Notes under the pieces: generated by a model
Seen by the model: the letters and a program-made list of their open reading frames with translations, nothing else
Databases searched by the model: none
Told to the model about the DNA's origin: nothing
Assembly (NCBI RefSeq): GCF_902459465.1
Contig: NC_047064.1
Location: 10,618,160 to 10,682,159 of the forward strand
DNA length: 64,000 nucleotides
Direction: 5' to 3'
DNA from: Asterias rubens
Lineage: Eukaryota
Shown here: piece by piece, positions 28,566 through 29,907 of the stretch
Layout of the letters: each line of letters starts with the position of its first letter
How positions within the stretch are numbered: position 1 is the stretch's first letter
Position numbers and translations under genes: made by a program

Positions 28566-28665
28566 AGTGACTCAGACGTACGACTCTGGAGCCTGTGTTT
28601 ACTTCTACTTTGCCTACATGTATCGTGGCCTTTCTAACCCAATTGAGGTGTATGAAGAGATTGAG
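28566..28665 (+). CDS. AGPS: AGPS exon. Encodes [33 protein letters not shown]. Its downstream intron uses a GC donor.
   Basis: Matches human [33 protein letters not shown]. Acceptor cctccatccag|. The donor is GAG|GCAAGT, the canonical GC-AG donor consensus. Reading on in frame meets a stop after 17 codons, and the next exon resumes exactly at the conserved AAAR. Confidence 0.85.
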
Positions 28666-29849
28666 GCAAGTATTGGTAATTATGCCGCAAAAAAAAATCA
28701 AAATAAAATTCATTAAACGTTTATTCCATACTCTTGTTGGAAAAAAAACAATTGTGAGAATTAAACAGTACATAGAAATTTAAAAAATCTAAAGTGCATT
28801 AAATTATACAAAAAAAAGCAATATAATCTAAAAGCAAATAATAAATTAATAACTAGGAATTAACTATGTACAAGACAGGAACGAGAGCATGAGGCTGTTA
28901 GATAAGCCGTGGCTTGTAGACAACAGCCTTTATACAGACAAGAAAACACACAAACAACCAAAAACAAACAAACAAACAAACAAATAAACATCGGAAGAAG
29001 AAGCAAGGGCAAGACAATTACACAATGACAATACAAAATACTGACGACAAAATACAAAGAATGTTAAACCAGGCTAACTGAAGACGACAAAAGAAAATAA
29101 ATAAGTGGAGAGAAAAGCTATGTTACATAGTGGGAGAGGAGGACTCTTTTGTAAACAAAATGTCCCCCTAAAAAAGCCAAATGATGAGTAACTAGCACTC
29201 TGCCCAAAAATGGAAACTAAGTATGATGAAGTAACGCAAGTAGCGGGATCTCAGAGAGCAATCATGTCCAAGCCATTGGCAGTGGTTTATGTTGACTTGT
29301 GTGTACTGTACTGCTGCAGTCTGGCACACTGATTACTACTGCAGTAGTGCAAACAAATTTCGTGATCGCTAACGTGAGTGGTAAAAAGTTTGTCTGATTT
29401 TTGGAGTAAAAGTGACATCACTAGTGCAAAATGCTAATACAAGGTGTATCCTTTGGTTTGTGACATTCATCTCTGAAAAAGTTATGAATTTGTCTAATAA
29501 TGATAACAAGATCAACAAAAGCAAAAAAAATTCTTATCAAATTATAAAGATTTTCGTTCACTAATATCTGAGCATTCTCCATGATCATGATCATAGAAAG
29601 ACATGGCTCTTACAGACTACTGAAATAATTTAACGTTGACAAGTGAGCAAAAAACTTAAATTTGCTGTAAAACATCTTGAAGTTGATAATAAATTTGATG
29701 TTAAATTGGTCTTTGAATGAGAGCTTTGTTGTGTGTATCACGCTGGAGTGGTCAGGCATTGTGTTCACAGGCATTGATTCATGTGGTTAAGTCAAAGTTC
29801 AAGTTAACACCAGGGTTAACAAGACAGTTCATTCAATTTCTATCACCAG

Positions 29850-29907
29850 GCTGCAGCTAGGGACGAGATCTTGGGTCTTGGAGGAAGTCTATCGCATCAC
29901 CATGGAG
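29850..29907 (+). CDS. AGPS: AGPS exon. Encodes AAARDEILGLGGSLSHHHG.
   Basis: Matches human AAAREEILANGGSLSHHHG(VGK). Acceptor ctatcaccag| and donor GAG|gtaaaa. Confidence 0.9.

Follow-up and report, generated by a model that had tools for sequence, protein, structure and literature searches.

The alkyldihydroxyacetonephosphate synthase (AGPS) gene of the starfish Asterias rubens has an intron that opens with GC and closes with AG, at positions 28666 to 29849 of the window (the whole 64,000-nucleotide stretch of DNA analysed here); with a probability that we put at about 93%, this is a GC-AG intron of the U2 type, handled by the major spliceosome. It is an ordinary representative of a class that is already known, and its splice junction is already annotated. 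GC-AG introns make up 0.37-0.87% of the U2-type introns in model species; their C at +2 mismatches U1, and the rest of the donor follows the consensus more closely (PMC1557818). As in other U2-type GC-AG introns, GC at +1/+2 and a terminal AG are combined in Asterias AGPS with a donor unusually near the consensus (AG/GCAAGT, with the slash marking the splice site here and below; PMC1557818, PMC2490688), and again as in that class, the aligned counterparts of the intron in other species are GT-AG introns; nothing distinguishes it from the class, to which it adds one more case, in an echinoderm gene. It has little significance past annotation hygiene: gene predictors need to have GC donors enabled, since the two exons are otherwise joined by an inferior junction or the first is read into a stop.

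The AGPS locus and its GC-AG intron

About twenty AGPS exons were placed on the forward strand by tblastn with orthologue fragments; a human AGPS sequence served as a tblastn probe only, and no conclusion was built on that probe. The gene and the parts of the intron are as follows.

1795 to 31463, forward strand: AGPS gene, 21 coding exons in the window; the TGA stop ends at 31463
28566 to 28665, forward strand: exon before the GC donor, the 19th in the window, encoding (R) and 33 residues
28663 to 28673, forward strand: 5' splice site GAG/GCAAGTAT (-3 to +8), intron start at 28666
28666 to 29849, forward strand: GC-AG intron, 1184 nt, phase 0, A-rich
29816 to 29833, forward strand: candidate branch-point motifs (yUnAy), TTAAC at 29816-29820 and TTCAT at 29829-29833
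29830 to 29849, forward strand: pyrimidine-rich tract and 3' splice site, ...TCATTCAATTTCTATCACCAG/G, read from the sequence
29850 to 29907, forward strand: next exon, encoding AAARDEILGLGGSLSHHHG and carrying the catalytic HHH motif
29855 to 29856, forward strand: second AG, 7 nt 3' of the annotated acceptor, the sole acceptor with which the rival GT donors stay in frame

The 598-residue product spliced from the 21 exons, the 28665/29850 junction included, matches residues 54-651 of XP_033625016.1 with 100% identity; the window therefore holds A. rubens AGPS with this junction as annotated. The first in-window exon occupies 1795-1877, and at least one coding exon upstream of the window supplies residues 1-53; the number 19, which the sequence-only reading had given to the exon before the GC donor, consequently stands as a count within the window and fails as a count along the gene. 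In a full-length protein search, the Asterias amurensis protein XP_071788558.1 was 97% identical, other echinoderms 70-75%, and the acorn worm Glandiceps 69%; the 90% cluster of XP_071788558.1 also contains the A. rubens protein XP_033625016.1, and the spliced model is 64-75% identical to annotated animal AGPS over the full length. The identity of the gene is further borne out by the Pfam domains FAD_binding_4 (E = 4.6e-36) and FAD-oxidase_C (E = 5.4e-48), by the HHH loop, and by orthology to characterised AGPS, with guinea-pig AGPS matched in PDB at E = 4.7e-39. RefSeq holds one unlabelled isoform per Asterias species, both proteins being Gnomon models; when the query was a short C-terminal segment, protein-database searches gave nothing beyond short fragments of at most 70% identity and no asteroid transcript contigs, and the Asterias RefSeq proteins came up only with the full-length query.

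The upstream exon ends in ...GAGATTGAG, with its last base at 28665; the forward strand reads ...TAT GAA GAG ATT GAG/GCAAGTATTGGTAATTATG... across the donor, the final G of GAG being 28665, and GCAAGT (28666-28671) is followed by AT to give the intron start GCAAGTAT. The exon end at 28665 and the opening GCAAGT that the sequence-only reading had reported are thus exact in coordinates and letters. The acceptor ...TATCACCAG (...CTATCACCAG) ends at 29849, and the downstream boundary is ...TTCATTCAATTTCTATCACCAG/GCT GCA GCT AGG GAC GAG ATC TTG..., where the first G after the slash is 29850; the same reading had correctly let AAARDEIL resume at this point behind the acceptor. Its count of 17 codons before a stop on read-through is essentially right, with the refinement that there are 16 sense codons and that the stop is the 17th.

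Pyrimidines fill 13 of the 18 bases that precede the acceptor AG. The A of TTAAC lies 30 nt and that of TTCAT 17 nt from the 3' splice site; both motifs are kept in A. amurensis, and the AG at 29848-49 is the first past TTCAT. A yUnAy-like motif, a pyrimidine-rich tract and use of the first AG together form an ordinary U2-type 3' end with a predicted branch point. The branch would probably be formed at one of these two motifs, to judge by the sequence, and the intron would then end at the first AG past the likely branch point (CAG/G, 29849), joining the exons in phase 0. A (CAAA)n microsatellite is located inside the intron near 28960-28985, and an Rfam search of the intron matched no family.

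Donor strength and competing junctions

For each in-window intron, we listed every AG acceptor and every GT or GC donor up to 45 nt away from the homology ends, provided that the frame stayed open, and ranked the combinations by orthologue alignment. GC was the best homology-preserving donor at 1 of the 20 introns, and the remaining 19 are GT-AG; the junction from GC at 28666 to AG at 29849 restores both the reading frame and colinearity with the orthologues (...EEIE/AAARDEIL...). Against the U1-complementary consensus CAG/GTAAGTAT, the donor GAG/GCAAGTAT matches 9 of 11 positions, with mismatches at -3 and +2; with the +2 C left aside, it matches 8 of 9 U1-consensus positions. Its consensus match is tied second among the 20 donors of the gene, and its predicted U1 duplex of -7.9 kcal/mol is intermediate among the other 19 (-5.1 to -14.0). 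Of 2202 GC dinucleotides on the forward strand, only 2 agree with the U1 consensus at 8 of the 9 other positions, and one of these lies exactly on the conserved, homology-defined exon boundary. The 8-mer AGGCAAGT alone is not enriched (2 matches vs. 1.92 expected); the significance of the donor follows from its position on the exon boundary and not from the frequency of the 8-mer.

U1 snRNA would recognise GAG/GCAAGTAT as it would a normal GT donor: the +2 C would introduce one mismatch, which perfect complementarity at -2, -1, +1 and +3 to +8 would offset, so that U1 pairing presumably acts as the compensating mechanism. In vivo, the intron is presumably excised at 28665/29850, the junction adopted in the RefSeq protein models of both Asterias species, which support it indirectly.

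The protein-level evidence bears on the exact junction. The spacing E-x-x-A-R is held in all 84 distinct orthologue segments, and all length variation falls upstream of it; in a profile of these segments, the GC junction scored 114.0 bits, compared to 107.7 and 104.5 bits for two rival junctions with GT donors. The product of the GC junction aligns gap-free to residues 565-657 of crystallised guinea-pig AGPS (PDB 4bc7), and XP_071788558.1 of A. amurensis reads EIEAAARDEIL, as does the A. rubens RefSeq protein. The two rival donors occupy 28670-28677, within a few bases of the GC.

Intron start 28676, forward strand: rival donor TTG/GTAATT (TTG/GTAATTAT), 8/11 consensus positions, -5.1 kcal/mol
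Intron start 28670, forward strand: rival donor CAA/GTATTG, 6/11 consensus positions, -3.4 kcal/mol

Either donor, when joined to the annotated acceptor, leads to a stop (...GCS and then the stop codon). As an example of what would overturn it, the sequence-only reading had named a cryptic GT farther downstream, paired with a compensating acceptor; two such in-frame pairs do exist, and both are clearly inferior. The first, a GT-AG intron from TTG/GTAATT (exon end 28675) to the second AG (exon start 29857), yields ...EIEASIARDEIL..., with one additional residue. Its junction is in frame and free of stops, the donor is a canonical GT with an 8/11 match and a U1 duplex of -5.1 kcal/mol, within the range of the other donors of this gene, and, lying near the GC donor, it could compete in A. 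rubens. We nevertheless regard this junction as quite improbable: its product falls 6.3 bits below that of the GC junction in the orthologue profile, the added residue disagrees with 84 of 84 orthologues, in which the invariant E and AR are separated by exactly two residues, and the junction requires the second of two CAGs that are 7 nt apart. Moreover, both RefSeq proteins read EIEAAARDEIL, the boundary falls directly after the Glu codon in seven other animals, and A. amurensis reads GTGTTT at this place, so that the rival GT site is not conserved.

The second pair, from CAA/GTATTG (exon end 28669) to 29857, would give ...EIEATRDEIL..., one residue shorter. It too is in frame without a stop; however, its donor is the weakest of all, lacking G at both -1 and +5, and its product scores 9.5 bits below that of the GC junction, with an invariant Ala replaced and one residue deleted. 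It also depends on the second AG and conflicts with the RefSeq proteins, and use of this junction is very unlikely.

An assembly or sequencing error at 28667, or a private polymorphism that hides a GT donor, would account for the C in a different way; single-base errors do occur, a T/C difference is a transition, and the base comes from a single A. rubens sequence. A. amurensis, whose genome was sequenced independently, has the same GC within an identical 12-nt context, and the chance of such an artefact appears very slight. Since the two introns are 93% identical over their aligned positions, the conservation of these 12 nt between the two Asterias is not in itself evidence of constraint; the shared GC mainly excludes sequencing error and private polymorphism and places the change before the split of the two species.

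A U12-type intron of the minor spliceosome was rejected as extremely unlikely. A rare U12-type GC-AG subclass shares the GC and AG termini with the Asterias AGPS intron, and TTAAC occurs 30 nt before the acceptor; yet in U12-type GC-AG introns the donor motif GCATCCT is perfectly conserved and a TCCTTAAC-like branch site lies 10-20 nt from the 3' end (PMC1557818), whereas here the donor is GCAAGTA, in agreement with the U2/U1 consensus, the upstream exon ends in AG as with U2-type donors, and the bare TTAAC is too distant.

Origin of the GC donor among animal orthologues

Intron position and donor were compared at the orthologous genomic loci of seven non-asteroid animals and of A. amurensis.

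Diadema antillarum (sea urchin): GAG/GTCAGT
Antedon mediterranea (crinoid): GAG/GTATAA
Glandiceps talaboti (acorn worm): GAG/GTAAGA
Branchiostoma belcheri (amphioxus): GAG/GTAAGA
A passerine (bird): GAG/GTAATG
Araneus ventricosus (spider): GAG/GTAAAT
Halocaridina rubra (shrimp): GAG/GTGAGT
Asterias amurensis (starfish; independent assembly): GAG/GCAAGTATTGGT, the same as in A. rubens

In all eight compared species the intron occupies the identical position, in phase 0, after the invariant Glu codon that precedes x-x-A-R-[DE]-E, and the exon ends in GAG throughout; A. amurensis also has AG at the same acceptor position as A. rubens. The orthologous introns thus share position and phase with the Asterias intron and differ in the donor, which is GC with 9/11 consensus matches in Asterias and GT with 5-7/11 matches in the other seven animals; a consensus match closer than in a typical GT donor is what is expected of a GC-AG donor. 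The comparison of orthologue donors that had been proposed as a check accordingly gave GT in seven other animals and GC in A. amurensis, and homology, identity to the RefSeq product, conserved position and the A. amurensis donor all agree with the initial proposal of a GC-AG intron in AGPS.

By parsimony over these loci, the change would be lineage-specific, from an ancestral GT to GC on the asteroid lineage; a T-to-C transition at +2 would have given an ancient GT-AG intron its GC donor, in the Asterias lineage after its separation from echinoids and crinoids and before the divergence of A. rubens and A. amurensis. The two Asterias are reported to have diverged approximately 28 Mya, and asteroids to have separated from other echinoderms approximately 511 Mya (PMC11090083). 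Switching between GT and GC donors is common among species (PMC1557818); in mammals, GT-to-GC conversions are more numerous than the reverse, and a strong sequence context may permit their neutral fixation (PMC2490688). Asterias AGPS appears to offer a tidy, datable and phylogenetically polarised GT-to-GC donor conversion in an ancient intron, together with the expected near-perfect compensating consensus.

One could speculate that the GC donor is a weakened site kept on purpose, and that some transcripts are spliced from the GT at 28676 to the usual acceptor or keep the intron; the resulting frameshifted product (...EIEASIGCS and then a stop) would be devoid of the catalytic HHH loop, and AGPS output would be tuned in Asterias in this way. 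Intron 10 of Caenorhabditis elegans let-2 likewise has a GC donor in a conserved gene, and there the GC is required for regulated alternative splicing (PMC2490688); Asterias AGPS gives no sign of alternative splicing or of regulation, and we consider such tuning improbable.

Several peculiarities were observed at the orthologous loci. The A. amurensis GC-AG intron contains an extra 132 nt (at about 28792-28923 of its locus, L007, corresponding to window position 28735/28736) without counterpart in A. rubens; the insertion holds a long perfect palindrome (…GTTTGCGGTAACACCATGTAATAACAATCTCT / AGAGATTGTTATTACATGGTGTTACCGCAAAC…) and is flanked by the duplicated motif TTCCATACTCTT, which gives it the appearance of a MITE insertion. 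In Branchiostoma belcheri (L001 6001-8362; P0007), AGPS is divided between two genes in the GenBank model Bbelb_265170, which also places a spurious 75-nt exon (AGVRTHDLQSTSFITRRSNHSAEK) in the orthologous intron, despite the normal GAG/GTAAGA donor. Glandiceps talaboti carries three tandem copies of a 95-nt unit (L010 30175-30416) that consists of the 3'-terminal 51 nt of the preceding AGPS exon (…RECQE[RK]GV[QH]FAPLVTAR), a GTAAGT donor and approximately 40 nt of intron; the copies amount to two extra potential donor sites. Finally, the ENA metagenome contig ctg303188 (L005 4001-4642) encodes a eukaryote AGPS, …EEVENAARDEIL…, on uninterrupted DNA, so that this intron, widely conserved elsewhere, is lacking there.

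Other features of the window

A tRNA-Ser(AGA)-like sequence at 5866-5939 on the forward strand is located inside the 4.8-kb AGPS intron 3341-8142 (Rfam tRNA, 48.4 bits; ARAGORN agrees); a genuine tRNA gene and the head portion of a tRNA-derived SINE are both conceivable. Downstream of AGPS, a Ras/Rab-family GTPase segment at 39599-39838 on the forward strand (Pfam Ras, E = 4.6e-11) is an exon of the neighbouring gene. Farther along the same strand, 57825-58565 is an open reading frame of 246 aa (…RLYKELVRPHLDYCVQAWRPHL…) for which Pfam gave no match at E <= 0.01; we take it to resemble the C-terminal region of non-LTR retrotransposon ORF2 proteins.

Repeats are found on both sides of the exons discussed here. 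At 27488-27843 and 30382-30769 a dispersed element occurs in opposite orientations, and its copies form several inverted-repeat arms, with up to 104 nt at 84% complementarity and 46 nt at 93%; the arms lie in the introns that flank the exons 27998-28087, 28566-28665 and 29850-29907, and such a layout around three AGPS exons can favour back-splicing. A 30-nt match of 87% between exon 28048-28077 and intron 28192-28221 was set aside, as the similarity seems fortuitous or carried by a repeat. Similar translated segments recur in pairs in the AGPS introns (17400-17600 and 28133-28460; 16618-16821 and 21981-22178; 26233-26330 and 26956-27050), with examples such as …KIIVAHTLKWP…, …HPCH[IM]KLCA[FS]R… and NTMIHTNMP.NC.VFLLPR…; they indicate several families of interspersed repeats.
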